35,862 nt of DNA from a virus, in the IMG/VR virus record IMGVR_UViG_3300047496_000075, positions 1 through 35,862 of that record; one strand, written 5' to 3'. The notes beneath the pieces were generated by a model. That model searched no databases. It was not told the DNA's origin and worked only from the letters and a program-made list of their open reading frames with translations. How positions within the stretch are numbered: position 1 is the first letter of the stretch; each line of letters begins with the position of its first letter. The position numbers and the translations under genes were made by a program. Shown here in pieces: positions 3,737 through 33,316 of this stretch.

Positions 3737-5905
3737 TTAGTAATTTGGTAAATCATTTCTAAAGAACTGTGGCATATTTTGTTCGCCATAAATAGCCTCT
3801 CTCTTCATCTTATCAAAATCATTTGATGACATAGAATCTTTTGTCTTAGGTAAAGCTATACATAAGTATCTCATTGCGTCACTATTGCTAACAATTGCGC
3901 CATTTGCTAAAGAAAAATGTCCAGATATTGGCACATTAATACACCACACTTCATGCATTCCCTCTAGTTTTTCTATTTTTTCTACCATAAGATGCTTTGC
4001 AGTTTGGGTGGCAGAACTTTTGGGAATTATTTTTTCTTTGCAAAAGCATAGCTTGCTTTCCACAGAACAAACATTCTCCAATGATTCTAATTTGTTTTTC
4101 CCAACTTTTAATTCGGATTGCATGTTCACTGTGCCATCTTCTTCCAGCTTCACTTCCATGCCATTTAATAGCGGCCTCTCTTGCCTTTTGGCTGAATCCC
4201 TTGTTATTTGGTTTAGGCATTTTTCTATGCTCTCTGGCAGGAAAGCAAACAAGGTTTGAAAGCTTGTTGTTATCTGTGTTACTATCTTTGTGATGAATGT
4301 GGCAATCTGTCGGAATATTACCATAGGCTGAACTCCAGACTTCACGGTGTAACCTTGATCCGAAAGTTCTGTTATAGTATTTTGTTCCTCGATTTTTATA
4401 TATTTTGTTATTAAATGTTTGCGTTGAAACATGTTCGACGATAGGATCTGCGATCCGGATTTCAGGTTCTCTGCAGATATCCATCCTGACTCCGTCAAGA
4501 ATAAATGATCCGGCGTACATCTCACTTTTACACCATCTACAAAAACCACCTGAACTAAGTTCGCATTCTTTCTCATGCTCTTTGAGCCTATGCACTTTTC
4601 CCATCCATTCGCAGTAAGAATCTCTTCATTATCCCTAATACTTATTATAGGACGCATCCCGCTACGCGTCAATACCATTGTATCATGGGCAAAGCAAAAA
4701 TGGCTAAATTTATCGTGTAGTGGATGCGGCTTGTATATTTGTTTTTTGGAATCCCATTCTTGCCTATAGTTTTCAAGAGCCTTGATTAATGGCTTGCAAT
4801 TGTTTTTGTCTATCCAGACTTTATCTAGAGTGGATCTAACAGCCTCAATTCCGTCCACTATTGAAAGATCTGGCGCTATTGTGAAGTCTATGCCTAACTG
4901 CCTAGCTTTCTCAATCCTGGTCAGTCCTGATCCCCATTCTTGAACCTTTACGTCATGTGGTGCTATGAATTTACCATAAAGGTAAGGTTTATTGCGAATT
5001 ACTTGTACATAGTGCTCAAGTCCAACTTTAGAATTCTCATATGTATCAATTATTCTTATTGTTTGACCTATATTCTGAAAGAATATAAGACATGTCGAAT
5101 CTCTCACACCGATATCTATAGCCACATGAACTTTAAACGCTGACTCCCAGTTAACATCTCCAATTTGATTTTTAACTCGCATTTTATCGATATATTTAGC
5201 ATAATATGCACCTTCAACACCCATATCAAAACTGGTATAAAACTCCTGCATAGCAAAGTCTTCAGATATTAGACCCTCAGATATCTCTTTTTGTATTTGA
5301 TGTGGTGTTATATGATCTGTGTCTAGAATTGTTAATTTAGATGCGAACCAATTCTCTGGATTATTAATTGCTATTTGATAGAGCTCCCATAAATGATTCT
5401 TGCCACGAGGCGTTGAAATAAACAATGACCAACCATCATTGCCAAGTAGAATAGGGCGTAGGAATTTATATGCTTGTGGATCTTGTAAGGCATACTCAGA
5501 GAATATAATCCCAATTGGATTAGAACCCATAAGTGAATCTATGTTATCACTCCCGACCAATTGGATTAAAGATCCATTGGTTAATGTGATTTTCATTTGT
5601 TGACTATTAGATGATTGTATTAATTCTTGTGGAATGTAATCAAGAAATCTCACACCTTCAGTTGTAATGGAATCCCATATTACTTTGCGAGCTTGAGAAT
5701 ATTCTGGGAAGACATAATAATATACACCTATCTTGCGTAGAGCTTGCCTTAATAATAGATTAAAAGCACAAACGTCTTTGCCTGCTCTGCGGGGCCAAAT
5801 ACACAGTAGGCGCTTATATTTACCAGATTCTAATGCATGACAAAGTGGGAGCTGGTATGGCCTTGGATGGAAGCGATTAAGATGTATTTTTGTTTCAATC
5901 TTCAT
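3737..5905 (-). CDS. terL: Terminase large subunit, intein-containing precursor (722 aa; 451 aa after splicing)
   Basis: Walker A-like PRRAGKD and Walker B-like IGIIFSEY. The nuclease-domain motif HDKFSHF|SDAMRYL is restored when aa 404-674 are removed. Confidence 0.88.
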   Translation of the reverse strand: MKIETKIHLNRFHPRPYQLPLCHALESGKYKRLLCIWPRRAGKDVCAFNLLLRQALRKIGVYYYVFPEYSQARKVIWDSITTEGVRFLDYIPQELIQSSNSQQMKITLTNGSLIQLVGSDNIDSLMGSNPIGIIFSEYALQDPQAYKFLRPILLGNDGWSLFISTPRGKNHLWELYQIAINNPENWFASKLTILDTDHITPHQIQKEISEGLISEDFAMQEFYTSFDMGVEGAYYAKYIDKMRVKNQIGDVNWESAFKVHVAIDIGVRDSTCLIFFQNIGQTIRIIDTYENSKVGLEHYVQVIRNKPYLYGKFIAPHDVKVQEWGSGLTRIEKARQLGIDFTIAPDLSIVDGIEAVRSTLDKVWIDKNNCKPLIKALENYRQEWDSKKQIYKPHPLHDKFSHFCFAHDTMVLTRSGMRPIISIRDNEEILTANGWEKCIGSKSMRKNANLVQVVFVDGVKVRCTPDHLFLTESGWISAENLKSGSQILSSNMFQRKHLITKYIKIEEQNTITELSDQGYTVKSGVQPMVIFRQIATFITKIVTQITTSFQTLFAFLPESIEKCLNQITRDSAKRQERPLLNGMEVKLEEDGTVNMQSELKVGKNKLESLENVCSVESKLCFCKEKIIPKSSATQTAKHLMVEKIEKLEGMHEVWCINVPISGHFSLANGAIVSNSDAMRYLCIALPKTKDSMSSNDFDKMKREAIYGEQNMPQFFRNDLPNY
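3884..4696 (-). mobile_element. Intein in terL (Cys404..Asn674, +1 Ser675)
   Basis: Block A CFAHDTMVLT, block B CTPDHLFLT, blocks F/G VWCINVPISGHFSLANGAIVSN|S. Codon positions were checked against the nucleotides. Confidence 0.8.
3951..4604 (-). CDS. HNH homing endonuclease, nested inside the intein but in a different frame from terL
   Basis: LHREVW..GNIPTDCHIHHKDSNTDNNKLSNLVCFPAREH forms the H-N-H core. The C-terminus has CLFCGK...FCHPNC zinc-ribbon-like Cys pairs. The frame offset from terL is 2. The true start may be internal (M29). Confidence 0.72.
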   Translation of the reverse strand: MGKVHRLKEHEKECELSSGGFCRWCKSEMYAGSFILDGVRMDICREPEIRIADPIVEHVSTQTFNNKIYKNRGTKYYNRTFGSRLHREVWSSAYGNIPTDCHIHHKDSNTDNNKLSNLVCFPAREHRKMPKPNNKGFSQKAREAAIKWHGSEAGRRWHSEHAIRIKSWEKQIRIIGECLFCGKQAMLLQRKNNSQKFCHPNCKASYGRKNRKTRGNA

Positions 5906-30472: not shown

Positions 30473-30988
30473 CTAAGCTAATGTAGCGCGTAAATTGATT
30501 ACCCAAAGGTCATTAGTGATCCTTGGAACTTCCGCAAATTTATAACCAACTGAAGCATTTAATGCTAAAGGTCCGTCATATATTGGTGGTCTATATATAA
30601 AAGACGCACTGTATCCGTCTTGTTCTATACAAGCATAAGCTTCCATACCAACGCAGAATATATTGTATACTGTTGCGCCTAATGAAGAAGCATTTAAACT
30701 TGTTGAACCAATACTGGAAATCAAGAATCTCAAGTTGCCAATAGCACCCCATTCTGAACGCAAGGCATTCATAGGAGCTGGATATTGGTTCTTTTGAATG
30801 AATCCAGCAACGTTATCCAAGTTTCCGGTTAAGTTTGTTGAACATAATGCAAAATATGCATCACGAACAGGCGCTGTACCGAATTTATCTTCACCTTCAA
30901 TGTTATCCATGATTGTATATGCATTATTATTCAATAAAGCACGAACAACTGTATCAACATCGGTTCTGGTTATTTCTGTAGGAACGTC
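30473..30988 (-). CDS. Major capsid protein, exon 4 (DVPTEITRTD...RATLA*)
   Basis: In frame with exon 3 once intron 3 is removed. The C-terminal pattern resembles HK97-fold capsid proteins of the N4 gp56 type. Confidence 0.75.
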   Translation of the reverse strand, partial: DVPTEITRTDVDTVVRALLNNNAYTIMDNIEGEDKFGTAPVRDAYFALCSTNLTGNLDNVAGFIQKNQYPAPMNALRSEWGAIGNLRFLISSIGSTSLNASSLGATVYNIFCVGMEAYACIEQDGYSASFIYRPPIYDGPLALNASVGYKFAEVPRITNDLWVINLRATLA

Positions 30989-31002
30989 CAATCTATTACT
31001 TT

Positions 31003-31031
31003 TTGACTTAAATTTATATATTTGTTATCAT
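31003..31031 (+). promoter_or_regulatory. Sigma70-like promoter TTGACT-17 nt-TATCAT, ending 6 nt (31032..31037) before the LAGLIDADG ATG
   Basis: Read directly. There is no Shine-Dalgarno between the -10 and the ATG, which suggests a leaderless mRNA. Confidence 0.35.
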
Positions 31032-31037
31032 ATAATT

Positions 31038-31955
31038 ATGAAACAAATTACTACAAATACCGATCTTGCATATTTCGCTGGTTACATTGATGGAGATGGA
31101 TGTTTTTATATTGGTAAATATATCGATAAGAAAACCAAGCGCATTAAATATCAATCCAGACTTATTATATCTTCTACAAATAGAGATATTTTTAAGCATT
31201 TTAAAACTTTGTATGGTGGAATTATTAGAATGTCCGATAATAGGATTAAATATCCAGGACAAAAACCACAATATCAATTTATAATTTCTGGAAATTCTGC
31301 TAGTAAAATTACTGATAAAATAACAAATATTTTGCATGAAAAACGATTCCAGGCCGACTTTTTTGTAAAGTTTAGCAATACAAAAAGCAAATCCCAAAAA
31401 GATTATTTTATTGATCTTTTTCATGATATTAAAGAACATTTTTATGTTTCTAAAGATAGAATATATCTTATTAAGAACGGTTCTTATCGCATAACTCCCA
31501 AAGAAGAAGACTATGCCTATCTTGCTGGATTTATAGATGCTGAATGCTCTTTGGGTATACAACATTATAAACCGAAAAATAAACCCAATCAGGTTTATAA
31601 AATTTACCTGAAATGCAATAACACTCAATCTCCAATTTTTCATTGGCTTTACGAAAGATTCGGTGGTCAGTTGCAATTTATAAATCGAAACAATAAAAAT
31701 ATTAATCATAAAGACCAGATAATGTGGACCCTCAGCGGAAAAGCTCTTTCTCAAATACTTCCATACATTTTTAAATATATCCAATATAAAAAACCAGTTT
31801 GCGAACAACTCATGAAATTCGATGCCACTACTCTTAAAAATGGCGGCGCAAGACACACGGAAAAATTCCGGGAATCCTATGCTAAAATTATTAAAGAGCG
31901 AGAATTGATTATTCATGAAGTCCATCGTCTCAACAAAAAAGGTATTCCAATTTAA
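31038..31955 (+). CDS. Double-motif LAGLIDADG homing endonuclease (305 aa)
   Basis: LAYFAGYIDGDGCF and YAYLAGFIDAECSL motifs. The start is set at the first Met after the antisense capsid exon. Confidence 0.85.
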   Translation: MKQITTNTDLAYFAGYIDGDGCFYIGKYIDKKTKRIKYQSRLIISSTNRDIFKHFKTLYGGIIRMSDNRIKYPGQKPQYQFIISGNSASKITDKITNILHEKRFQADFFVKFSNTKSKSQKDYFIDLFHDIKEHFYVSKDRIYLIKNGSYRITPKEEDYAYLAGFIDAECSLGIQHYKPKNKPNQVYKIYLKCNNTQSPIFHWLYERFGGQLQFINRNNKNINHKDQIMWTLSGKALSQILPYIFKYIQYKKPVCEQLMKFDATTLKNGGARHTEKFRESYAKIIKERELIIHEVHRLNKKGIPI

Positions 31956-32138
31956 GCGGGTAGTCATTTCTGCTACCTCTCATACTTATCGCATGAGGCT
32001 CGACTATCGCATCCTCAATAGAGGTCTTCTTGTTTAGTCTGTCAGGCTGTATTTAAACTTGCCCCTTGTTGCCGGTTAGCTTATTGCCACTTCGGGTTCC
32101 AAGTCAATTAAAGAAGATTTTAAAACGGCAACATTTCT

Positions 32139-32417
32139 ACCGTTTACACCACCGGTGCAATTTATAAACGCAGCAGTAGCGGCCAACATGTCTCTTGTTA
32201 ACTGATCCTCTGTTTGTCTTAAACTTACACCTAATCTAGCCGCACATTCATTAAGAACAGGGTCTTGGTTTTGCAGGGTTACTTGTTCATTCAATTGAAC
32301 GTATGTCCCATAAAAACTAATTTTAGCATCAATATCAACAGCTGTTAAATTCTGAGCAGGAGGAGTTACACCAGTATTACCTAGAGGCACCATTGCTGTA
32401 TTTAACGGGTTATATCT
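32139..32417 (-). CDS. Major capsid protein, exon 3 (RYNPLNTAMVPLGNTGVTPP...CTGGVNG)
   Basis: 93 codons; boundaries fixed by the P1 helix and the terminal G of intron 2. Confidence 0.75.
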
Positions 32418-32810
32418 CATTTTTTGTTACTATTTGAAATTTATTCAAACGGGAATGCCTATTGCACATTCCTCACTGTGTTTCCACAATGTTCAGAGCA
32501 CCGCATCACTTTTCAGTGTTTTCTCGCTTGCTACGTTCAGGCTGATCGGGTATTAATTTAGTCCATGAATTATTTTTATATTTTTTCATCCAAATAGTAT
32601 CGCTATCAGTATTTATCCAAAATGCTGTATCTACTAAATCCAATTTATCATTTGAATTTGGATTTCTTTTGGATATTATCGTATTACTTGGAATATAATC
32701 ACATTTTTTATTAAACCAATTAATCATAATCTTGCCCCTTGTTGTCTACGACTTTACGTTTAGAGTTCCAAGTCTATCAGAGAAAATTTTAAATGCGCAG
32801 ATTTTTGTTT
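32418..32810 (-). mobile_element. Group I intron 2 of the capsid gene (393 nt)
   Basis: P1 pairs AAUGCGU (32817..32811) with GCGCAUU (32798..32792), ending in U.G. The intron ends ...AAAAUG. It shares 65-nt and 60-nt blocks identically with intron 1. Confidence 0.72.
32506..32727 (-). CDS. Intron 2 ORF (73 aa), no recognisable endonuclease motif
   Basis: Starts 7 nt after the AAGGGG of the intron core. The last 12 codons (QPERSKRENTEK) are encoded by conserved intron core sequence. Confidence 0.5.
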   Translation of the reverse strand: MINWFNKKCDYIPSNTIISKRNPNSNDKLDLVDTAFWINTDSDTIWMKKYKNNSWTKLIPDQPERSKRENTEK

Positions 32811-32927
32811 ACGCATTCTTAAAGTTGTTCCACCATTCCTTGGCATGTTTTTTTTCATAGCCGGAATTTTGTGGATCATATTAGGAACCGGGACTGATAA
32901 AAGCTTATAACTAAAGCTTTGTTGTAC
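32811..32927 (-). CDS. Major capsid protein, exon 2 (VQQSFSYKLL...GGTTLRMR)
   Basis: 39 codons found by manual translation between introns 1 and 2. Confidence 0.7.
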
Positions 32928-33280
32928 CATTCTGTTACTTTTGTGACCTATTTCTAGGCGAGGAAGCCTATTGCACTTCCCTCATTGCATTTCTACAATG
33001 TTCAGAGCACCGCATCACTTTTCAGTGTTTTCTCGCTTGCTACGTTCAGGCTGAAGAAAATCATTTAAAAATGCTTTATAATCAACTTGATATAATCCCT
33101 CACAGAATTCGCAAACAATATGATGATAATCATCTATATTAAATGCCTTTCCGTCTACAAAATATACCTTATCACATCGTTCACATTTATATTGATTCAT
33201 AATCTTGCCCCTTGTTGTCTACGACTTTACGTTTAGAGTTCCAAGTCTATCAGAGAAAATTTAACGCGCCCATACATTTT
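32928..33280 (-). mobile_element. Group I intron 1 of the capsid gene (353 nt)
   Basis: P1 pairs GCGCCU (33286..33281) with GGGCGC (33271..33266), ending in U.G. The intron ends ...AGAAUG. Confidence 0.7.
33015..33200 (-). CDS. Intron 1 ORF (61 aa), zinc-ribbon-like (CERC...CEFC)
   Basis: Same insertion point and same 12-aa C-terminal tail as the intron 2 ORF. Confidence 0.5.
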   Translation of the reverse strand: MNQYKCERCDKVYFVDGKAFNIDDYHHIVCEFCEGLYQVDYKAFLNDFLQPERSKRENTEK

Positions 33281-33316
33281 AGGCGCCGGAAGAGTCGAGG
33301 TTGTTGTAATTGCCAT
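33281..33316 (-). CDS. Major capsid protein, exon 1 (MAITTTSTLPAP)
   Basis: The ATG at 33316 is preceded by AAGGAG with a 6-nt spacer. Confidence 0.65.

Follow-up and report, generated by a model that had tools for sequence, protein, structure and literature searches.

Candidate protein cargo in the P6 loop of group I introns that interrupt a phage major capsid gene

Introduction

The viral sequence analysed here is IMG/VR record IMGVR_UViG_3300047496_000075, positions 1 to 35,862 (35,862 nt, referred to as the window). Its major capsid gene is split by three group I introns, and two of these, introns A and B, share identical core sequences while carrying two different small open reading frames (ORFs, of 61 and 73 amino acids) in the same loop. 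To our knowledge, phage group I introns are thought to carry either nothing or a homing endonuclease, and the question raised by this locus is what such small ORFs are and why they sit where they do. A preliminary description of the window left three readings, namely degraded endonucleases, maturase-like factors and unrelated hitch-hiking cargo. The last of these fits best with the data presented below and the first fits worst: on balance, the ORFs (called cargos from here on) are probably real small accessory phage proteins carried on a mobile intron, and not decayed endonucleases.

Results and Discussion

Two introns with one core and different ORFs

The capsid gene lies on the minus strand and consists of four exons separated by introns A, B and C. 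PHROG 1357 (major head protein) matches the split gene in a PHROG scan. The parts of the gene and the two cargo ORFs are as follows.

33281-33316, minus strand: exon 1, codons 1-12 (MAITTTSTLPAP); its terminal 6 nt, GCGCCU, are the P1 partner of the intron A guide
32928-33280, minus strand: intron A, group I, 353 nt, between codons 12 and 13; 3′ end ...GUAACAGAAUG
33015-33200, minus strand: 61-aa cargo ORF in the P6 terminal loop of intron A; CxxC-20-CxxC
32811-32927, minus strand: exon 2, codons 13-51, from the spliced-protein alignment
32418-32810, minus strand: intron B, group I, 393 nt, between codons 51 and 52; 3′ end ...GUAACAAAAAAUG
32506-32727, minus strand: 73-aa cargo ORF in the P6 terminal loop of intron B; same start context and tail as the 61-aa ORF
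32139-32417, minus strand: exon 3, codons 52-144, from the spliced-protein alignment; PHROG 1357
30989-32138, minus strand: intron C, group I, 1150 nt, same family as A and B; large insert in the P9 region
30473-30988, minus strand: exon 4, codons 145-315 and stop, from the spliced-protein alignment

The preliminary description had recognised introns in one gene, bounded by 32418 and 33280. Both limits agree with the independently derived intron ends: 32418 is where intron B stops (3′) and 33280 is where intron A begins (5′). The repeat blocks on which it relied are exact (33198-33262 = 32725-32789 and 32995-33054 = 32486-32545, the latter of 60 nt), the first being one base longer than reported (66 nt). 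The loop that it described as common to both ORFs is, by ORF coordinates and structure alignment, the P6 terminal loop. The corresponding loop of intron C is empty, as had been noted, and reads CAAGGGGCAAG-TTTAAATA-CAGCCTGA (32068-32042).

Both ORFs start at an ATG within CAAGGGGCAAGATTATG, 7 nt downstream of AAGGGG. That this hexamer acts as a Shine-Dalgarno sequence is plausible, the spacing being the same as in the ribosome-binding site of the capsid gene itself (AAGGAG-7 nt-ATG). The sequence directly 5′ of both ORFs, CAAGGGGC, is made up of the P4 3′ strand (CAAG) and the P6 5′ strand (GGGC), so that the putative Shine-Dalgarno is itself built of core helix strands. At the other end, the last 12 codons of both ORFs (QPERSKRENTEK) are the P6 3′ strand, J6/7, the P7 5′ strand, the P3 3′ strand and P8, with the UGA stop at the 3′ end of P8. 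The two proteins end in QPERSKRENTEK* because their frame runs into the common core, and the shared C-terminal residues are thus translated core RNA, as first suggested. The reading frame of the upstream exon also enters introns A and B, for 15-16 codons, and stops in P5, 32 nt 5′ of the cargo AUG.

A fixed slot across the intron family

The arrangement is not confined to the window. A close relative, L081, whose capsid protein is 94-98% identical, has a pair of introns from this lineage, in two capsid positions other than those of A and B; their ORFs, of 68 aa (Cys-rich) and 88 aa, use the same AUG and read into the same core. A search for the core with other cargos, proposed in the preliminary description, returned many: the pattern AACAAGGGGCAAGATTATG occurs in 83 IMG/VR stretches with 88 distinct ORFs of 27-167 aa, nearly all of which enter the core as QPER. 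Short P6 loops (≤30 nt) are at least as common, being found in >120 stretches.

Across all loci fetched there are 106 distinct P6 loops of 41-450 nt, with a G+C content of ~30%. In 103 of them the loop is free of stop codons from an AUG within its first 15 nt, in phase 0 with CAGCC. None of these 103 open cargos has a stop codon of its own; the frame continues through P6′, J6/7, P7 and P3′ (peptide QPER...). When the loops were shuffled 200 times, a mean of 2.1 and a maximum of 7 were stop-free, and the other frames of the 106 natural loops are largely closed (0-1 open in the two other sense frames, 7-14 in the antisense frames). The remaining three loops comprise one in phase 2, where the stop is the UGA of CCUGA, and two with no AUG in the first 15 nt.

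The nucleotide 5′ of CAGCC is U in 99 of the 106 loops, and the final two are AU in 81; these pair with the GAU of GCAAGAUUAUG to form P6a, which is why the residue that closes the cargo is mostly N, D, I or Y. Read-through adds a tail of 9-96 codons, which varies with the RNA sequence (SKRED, LNPE or LSEKT). The cargo frame terminates within P8 or P9, or else runs on into a second coding insert of the P8 loop. Apparent P6 loops of 500-1900 nt were considered as endonuclease carriers, but these proved to be runs of neighbouring introns, every one with a small ORF of its own. A full-length endonuclease was not seen in the P6 loop of any of ~270 copies.

Judged from these predicted reading frames, introns A and B are one instance of a family-wide plan, with a fixed start, a fixed frame, no own stop, a hypervariable cargo and a second, in-frame slot in P8. 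The core with its AUG also has exact matches on six contigs of metagenome-assembled genomes (L281-L286), labelled Nitrososphaeria, Bacteroidaceae, Babeliales, Chitinophagales, Legionellales and Actinomycetota. These labels give no consistent host, and the contigs are probably mis-binned phage contigs.

A second slot in P8

A long insert in the P8 loop is present in 50 distinct copies (for example L090 5367, L150, L159 and L083), and 49 of these also have a P6-loop ORF (Fisher p = 3e-16). In 38 of the 49, the reading frame that leaves the P6 loop meets no stop in the P8 insert or in the P7 3′ strand; in several of the rest, the ORF has its stop close to or right at the point where the insert ends on its 3′ side. 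One P8 module (LDC..KKLEYL..IDENIDCGEWH..) recurs in combination with different P6 cargos. In two-slot copies, one protein is thus encoded by two peripheral loops, and its linker (QPERSKRED) is a strand of the catalytic core. Introns A and B of the window represent the one-slot form and have no P8 insert.

Diversity of the cargos and signs of selection

Clustering of 161 cargo N-terminal parts by BLAST gave 118 clusters, of which 94 have a single member. When a database of 5.8 billion sequences was searched with a profile of one read-through tail, 95 further proteins were retrieved, nearly every one of them present on only one contig and without relatives. The ratio of nonsynonymous to synonymous substitutions (dN/dS) is below 1 in 21 of 23 homologous, non-identical cargo pairs, with a median of about 0.3, and Cys patterns are kept within cargo families at 55-60% identity. 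DUF551 is matched by four of the 80 cargos scanned (best E = 1.7e-8), and three PHROG families of unannotated function also have matches. The pool of cargos is thus very diverse: besides zinc ribbons and a few DUF551 domains, it holds acidic proteins of helical type and a large number of orphans. Its members are under purifying selection, as the substitution ratios indicate.

Neither window ORF has a significant family in Pfam, PHROGs or the PDB. The statement of the preliminary description that neither has LAGLIDADG, GIY-YIG, HNH or His-Cys motifs was borne out by searches for homing-endonuclease families (LAGLIDADG, GIY-YIG, HNH, His-Cys box and PD-(D/E)xK), which gave no match to either ORF in Pfam at E ≤ 1, in PHROGs or in the PDB; in the same Pfam run the ORF in intron C served as a positive control and matched LAGLIDADG_1 with E = 1.8e-10. 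A tblastn search of both ORFs against phages returned nothing meaningful. In large protein collections, a word-indexed search with the 61-aa ORF retrieved only the query, and a full HMMER search with the 73-aa ORF retrieved the query and two marginal matches (E about 1e-4). The latter reflect a repeated beta motif in large repeat proteins and were not taken as homology.

The 61-aa ORF has two CxxC pairs, C6xxC9 and C30xxC33. Its best Pfam match is Zn_ribbon_Elf1 (E = 0.016; 15.8 bits, below the cut-off of 29.8), and it scores E = 2.5e-5 against a hidden Markov model (HMM) built from 15 other CxxC..CxxC cargos, a set that was selected by its Cys pattern. These matches weakly suggest that it belongs to a recurrent class with CxxC, ~20 residues, CxxC and a short helix ending in (D/E)F(I/L/F) before QPER. 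A truncated HNH domain (CxxC..HH..CxxC) was considered for this ORF and rejected, given the lack of a Pfam match and of the segment with the catalytic residues. The JGI annotation labels the same ORF (33015-33200, minus strand) 'DNA-directed RNA polymerase subunit RPC12/RpoP', a label that probably stems only from the zinc-ribbon pattern. The 73-aa ORF (MINW... ...SWTKLIPD) was considered as a divergent DUF551 protein and rejected, having no match to Pfam PF04448 and no score against an HMM of DUF551-like cargos; it falls into no class of cargo.

What the small ORFs may be

Most probably the cargos act as moron-like accessory proteins of the phage and not as mobility enzymes. The intron would offer them an insertion site with no phenotypic cost, strong transcription late in infection and conserved flanks that favour their spread, and the mobility of the family would come from antisense LAGLIDADG genes, such as that in intron C, and from recombination between copies. 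In the folded ribozyme the ribosome-binding site would be paired, and the ORF has a 3′ end that is made of core strands, from which we infer that a given RNA is either translated or folded and spliced, not both. Ribosomes would most likely load during transcription, while the P6 3′ strand has yet to be synthesised, and loading may be aided by ribosomes that end the upstream exon frame in P5, 32 nt 5′ of the AUG. After termination in P8 or P9, the core could fold and splice.

A more far-reaching version of this reading can be offered only tentatively. The intron family could be a ribozyme-embedded expression cassette (an 'integron slot'), with a ribosome-binding site made of core strands and an AUG, one or two slots, a core-encoded linker and mutually exclusive translation and splicing, which exchanges hypervariable accessory proteins (for example for host takeover, anti-defence or exclusion) among phages, at dozens of sites and in many genomes.

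Several points weigh against the accessory-protein reading. Each window ORF is the sole member of its cluster among ~15 billion proteins, and selection on these two ORFs themselves is not measurable. Structure prediction, the check proposed in the preliminary description, gave only low-confidence AlphaFold2 models, with a predicted local distance difference test (pLDDT) score of 61 for the 61-aa ORF and of 52 for the 73-aa ORF, the latter all-beta. The accessory role is argued by analogy, and no cargo resembles a known defence or anti-defence family; PADLOC gave no significant defence-family match among the cargos (best E = 0.0014, one member). The cargos almost never have their own stop, and phase 2 occurs in only one of the 106 loops, which would not be expected of a free-riding gene. 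This regularity of stop and phase points to some requirement in cis. The bias to phase 0 arises in part because only phase 0 reaches the P8 slot, yet most copies have no P8 insert; phase 2 leads to an immediate stop at the UGA of CCUGA.

The same regularity is what favours the view that the ORFs are translated spacers, in which the transit of ribosomes into the core times or chaperones folding, or shields the RNA from Rho or RNases, and the protein sequence is irrelevant. A fixed start, a fixed frame and no own stop in 103 of 106 loops, and the fact that most cargos are singletons with no family, would all be accounted for, and ribosomes are known to help or disturb the splicing of phage group I introns (PMC3073962). 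We nevertheless regard this view as unlikely. A dN/dS below 1 in 21 of 23 pairs, conserved Cys4 patterns and full DUF551 domains are not expected where only transit matters; translation of the loop is evidently dispensable in the >120 stretches whose loop of ≤30 nt is too short for an ORF, and a functionless insert would most simply be deleted.

It is likewise doubtful that the small proteins serve the intron itself, either as maturase-like or chaperone-like splicing helpers or as DNA-binding cofactors for homing by an endonuclease supplied in trans. Zinc ribbons, the type to which the 61-aa ORF would belong, often bind nucleic acid, a charged read-through tail (QPERSKRE..) is always appended, and LAGLIDADG genes are present in only some copies. 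More than 100 unrelated clusters in one slot are hard to square with one intron-specific activity, however; ORF-less copies are abundant, and the tail (SKRED, LNPE or LSEKT) is not conserved as a peptide.

It is very improbable that the ORFs are what decay has left of homing endonuclease genes formerly housed in the P6 loop, where the td intron of phage T4 has I-TevI. The P6 loop is a classical endonuclease site, and endonuclease ORFs there are also known to overlap P6a and P7 (PMC3073962); the CxxC...HH..CxxC arrangement of the 61-aa ORF also faintly recalls the zinc-binding frame of HNH enzymes. Against this, no endonuclease family is matched even at E ≤ 1, the segment from HH to the second CxxC, which holds the catalytic Asn/His in HNH enzymes, is missing, and no full-length endonuclease lies in this loop among the ~270 copies. 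Remnants should also gather stops and frameshifts, yet 103 of 106 loops are intact, and the cargos are under purifying selection. Chance open frames, a thought invited by the shortness of the two window ORFs and their lack of homologues, are effectively refuted by the ~2 stop-free loops in shuffles against 103 observed and by the closure of the other frames.

Splice sites and predicted fold

Joining the exons restores the reading frame of the host gene and gives a capsid protein of 315 aa. This protein has 595 relatives in IMG/VR, and the best 80 of them are nearly all encoded by unsplit genes of 945 nt, with 87-96% identity over residues 1-315. It aligns without gaps to >70 intron-less homologues, and four homologue translations are gap-free across all three junctions, which fixes the splice sites of A, B and C to the nucleotide. 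A megablast search of GenBank phages gave no match to the locus.

In all three introns the exon end pairs with an internal guide to form P1, with a U.G pair at the 5′ splice site: GCGCCU with GGGCGC in intron A, AUGCGU with GCGCAU in intron B and AACGGU with GCCGUU in intron C. All three end in G (..AAUG, ..AAUG and ..AUUG, respectively). A script run with no shuffle control detected a P1 of 5-7 bp, at many different exon sequences, for 197 of the family's 275 copies. In a consensus scan, the P1 hairpin of intron A followed by GUUAAAUUUU (33266-33286, minus strand) resembles an intrinsic terminator, which may be a mere by-product of P1.

All three introns lie between codons, and their ends are AUG (32928-32930), AUG (32418-32420) and UUG (30989-30991, all minus strand). 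These triplets are in frame with the next exon, and unspliced RNA thus offers starts for N-terminally truncated capsid fragments; no obvious Shine-Dalgarno sequence lies 5′ of any of the three.

The elements assigned to introns A and B are listed below, in the direction of the minus strand.

33271-33266, minus strand: intron A, guide
33259-33253 with 33034-33028, minus strand: intron A, P3
33214-33207, minus strand: intron A, putative Shine-Dalgarno (P4 3′ strand and P6 5′ strand)
33043-33038 with 33009-33005, minus strand: intron A, P7
33027-33016, minus strand: intron A, P8
33000-32983, minus strand: intron A, P9
32981-32960, minus strand: intron A, P9.1
32798-32793, minus strand: intron B, guide, pairing with exon AUGCGU at 32816-32811
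32786-32780 with 32525-32519, minus strand: intron B, P3
32741-32734, minus strand: intron B, putative Shine-Dalgarno (P4 and P6 strands)
32534-32529 with 32500-32496, minus strand: intron B, P7
32518-32507, minus strand: intron B, P8
32491-32474, minus strand: intron B, P9
32472-32452, minus strand: intron B, P9.1

The fold was examined in an alignment of 31 diverse copies, consisting of 29 natural copies from related phage contigs (28 with a loop too short for an ORF and one with a short ORF) and introns A and B of the window with the body of the ORF removed. RNAalifold recovered P3, P4, P5, P6/P6a, P8, P9 and P9.1; P7 was added by hand and crosses P3 like the pseudoknot of group I introns. 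Standard pairs are formed in 95.7% of the cells; sliding the 3′ partners by 1-3 columns lowers this to 42-46%, and none of 500 shuffles matched the observed paired cells, covarying cells or covariation score. Compensatory changes occur in all seven pairs of P3, P7 is 100% paired with two covarying pairs, and P5, P6a, P8, P9 and P9.1 also covary. The P3 of intron C (UCUUCUU/AAGAAGA) covaries with that of introns A and B. P7 contains an invariant G-C pair (columns 141/197); the adjacent bulged U is present in the A/B subtype and this residue is missing in the other subtype. The G-C pair and bulged U are compatible with a guanosine-binding site. Taken together with the splice sites, the predicted fold identifies introns A and B as group I ribozymes that interrupt the phage major capsid gene.

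Neither the window nor L078, a relative of 217 nt with no ORF, has a match in Rfam, whether the gathering threshold or E ≤ 10 is applied. We read this as a gap in model coverage and not as evidence against the fold. Because the introns are invisible to Rfam, the capsid genes of such phages look fragmented unless the introns are recognised.

In the Michel-Westhof classification, the hallmark of subgroup IA is a pair of extra helices, P7.1 and P7.2, between P7 and the P3 3′ strand. Membership of this subgroup (T4-type) was rejected, since P7.1 and P7.2 are absent: in 31 of 31 copies the P7 5′ strand and the P3 3′ strand are just 2-3 nt (AAG) apart. The family also has no P2 in the aligned copies. 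An IStron, in which an IS200/IS605-type transposase or a TnpB gene accompanies the intron, was likewise rejected: the 61-aa and 73-aa ORFs are the only ones in introns A and B, and neither matches a transposase in Pfam or PHROG.

Mobility and mosaicism

Introns of this family occupy at least 19 sites in the capsid gene family as counted from the junctions of high-scoring segment pairs, or about 45 by P1 prediction, mostly in codon phase 0. Up to five intron cores are found in one capsid gene of 315 codons (for example L125 6092-8166, L112 2757-4300, L090 and L159). In a repeat search, the shared blocks belong to wider repeat families, one of 96 nt (91% identity) and one of 83 nt (90%).

Introns A and B are identical over the 5′ core from P3 to P6 (57/57) and the 3′ core from P6′ to P7′ (54/54), and their P9 tails are 74% identical, with compensatory changes. 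The two introns of L081 are also identical over the 5′ core (57/57), with 87% identity in the 3′ core and 91% in the P9 tail. Between the genomes, A or B and the L081 introns share 86% of the 5′ core, and the 3′ core is 100% identical to that of L081-1 and 87% to that of L081-2, so the block shared by A and B recurs in a third position of the capsid gene. In its P9 tail, intron A resembles L081-1 (88%) more than it does B (74%), the other three pairs between the window and L081 being at 72-81%. The 5′ core is thus homogenised among the copies of one genome, and the cargos of A, B, L081-1 and L081-2 are all unrelated.

As wholes, the introns are mosaics, judging by these alignments. The preliminary description had taken the perfect core identity to imply a recent duplication, which is only partly supported: the identity of the central core stands (57 + 54 nt), but the P9/P9.1 regions differ (74% identity). 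The identity is explained equally well by a recent move of the intron to a second site and by exchange among the copies, through gene conversion or recombination.

The guide of the second L081 intron, GGGCAC (about 7926-7900, minus strand), is mismatched at one position (C.A) with its exon GCGCCU. Its full complement would be GUGCCU, the 'VPVP' site of other copies, and on these pairings the intron looks like a recent ectopic move between similar sites.

Intron C carries an endonuclease gene, with a promoter match 5′ of it.

31038-31955, plus strand: LAGLIDADG homing endonuclease gene, 305 aa, in intron C and antisense to the intron and the capsid gene; Pfam LAGLIDADG_1, E = 1.8e-10
31003-31031, plus strand: sigma-70-like promoter match, TTGACT-17-TATCAT, with TG; ends 6 nt 5′ of the LAGLIDADG ATG

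Homologues of this gene are found in 28 of 286 related loci, and in about 22 of the 27 with a nearby core the gene is antisense to the core. The number of such promoter matches in the region is not above chance. The lack of a Shine-Dalgarno sequence and the closeness of the promoter match to the ATG suggest a leaderless or near-leaderless mRNA. Transcription of the gene would meet transcription of the capsid gene head-on.

Relation to known introns

Four features of these introns are already known, namely core-overlapping P6 ORFs, sequestered ribosome-binding sites, similar introns with divergent ORFs, and introns in capsid genes (PMC3073962, PMC3984707, PMC3706429). In those cases the ORFs are homing endonucleases, and the interest of the present family lies in its scale, its regularity and its non-endonuclease cargo. 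In full-text literature searches of incomplete coverage, no account was found of group I introns whose slot and frame are fixed while a hypervariable cargo other than endonucleases fills them, and an earlier description may exist. The nearest hint is the small ORF in the split DNA polymerase gene of the OM43 phages, discussed below.

A close parallel is the T4 td intron with I-TevI, together with related phage and bacterial introns with P6/P6a ORFs, which share a phage protein gene as host, an ORF in the P6 loop, an ORF 3′ end that forms P6a/P7 and a sequestered ribosome-binding site (PMC3073962). In td, the last 20 nt of the I-TevI ORF form P6a/P7, and ribosome occupancy causes a splicing defect (PMC3073962). 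Entry of ribosomes into the core impairs td splicing (PMC3073962), and the same exclusion would be expected here from the overlap of ORF and core. The td ORF differs in being a 245-aa GIY-YIG homing endonuclease that drives mobility, whereas the ORFs of the window family are of 27-167 aa, match no endonuclease family and fall into >100 unrelated clusters in one slot. The overlap with the core is also in one constant frame throughout the family, and P2, P7.1 and P7.2 are lacking. Under the 'core creep' idea, ORFs that invaded independently should each overlap the core in their own way, with no single frame in common; the constant frame seen here tests this idea. The LAGLIDADG ORF in the large-subunit ribosomal DNA intron of Synechococcus lividus likewise overlaps P6/P7/P3/P8/P9 (Table 1 of PMC3073962); it is a homing endonuclease in an rRNA intron, a single case with no variable cassette.

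Group I introns in a major capsid gene are also found in mycobacteriophage LittleE and lactococcal phage Tuc2009 (PMC3706429), and the bottom-strand LAGLIDADG gene in the LittleE capsid intron is one published precedent for that of intron C (PMC3706429). Those phages differ in having one intron per gene, no reported small cargo ORFs on the sense strand and no spread over many sites. In the OM43 phages MEP401 and MEP402, a DNA polymerase gene is split by a small ORF with no homologues, and the authors suspect an intron (PMC10580990); the likeness is by description only, the host gene being another one and no ribozyme structure, splice sites or family being described. Closely related introns with very different ORFs were reported by Goodrich-Blair and Shub (1994, as cited in PMC10580990), and, as far as that secondary account goes, similar cores and divergent ORFs are the point of likeness. 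The introns of I-HmuI and I-HmuII differ from the present family in that their ORFs are in P8 and only a few variants exist. Those divergent ORFs are reportedly the HNH endonucleases I-HmuI and I-HmuII.

The present case would be one intron family at at least 19, perhaps ~45, capsid sites with >100 unrelated small non-endonuclease proteins in one slot. If the accessory-protein reading is true, small phage genes would have a further, new way of spreading. The family also offers a naturally occurring system where the path of a protein gene runs through the catalytic core of a ribozyme.

Another candidate self-splicing element in the window

The large terminase gene (3737-5905, minus strand, 722 aa) contains an internal insert, and PHROG 2472 matches at residues 225-404, inside the terminase match. 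The insert matches Pfam Intein_splicing with E = 7e-8 and 32.8 bits, just under the cut-off of 35.8 bits. It is probably an intein, in which case this genome would carry several kinds of self-splicing element.

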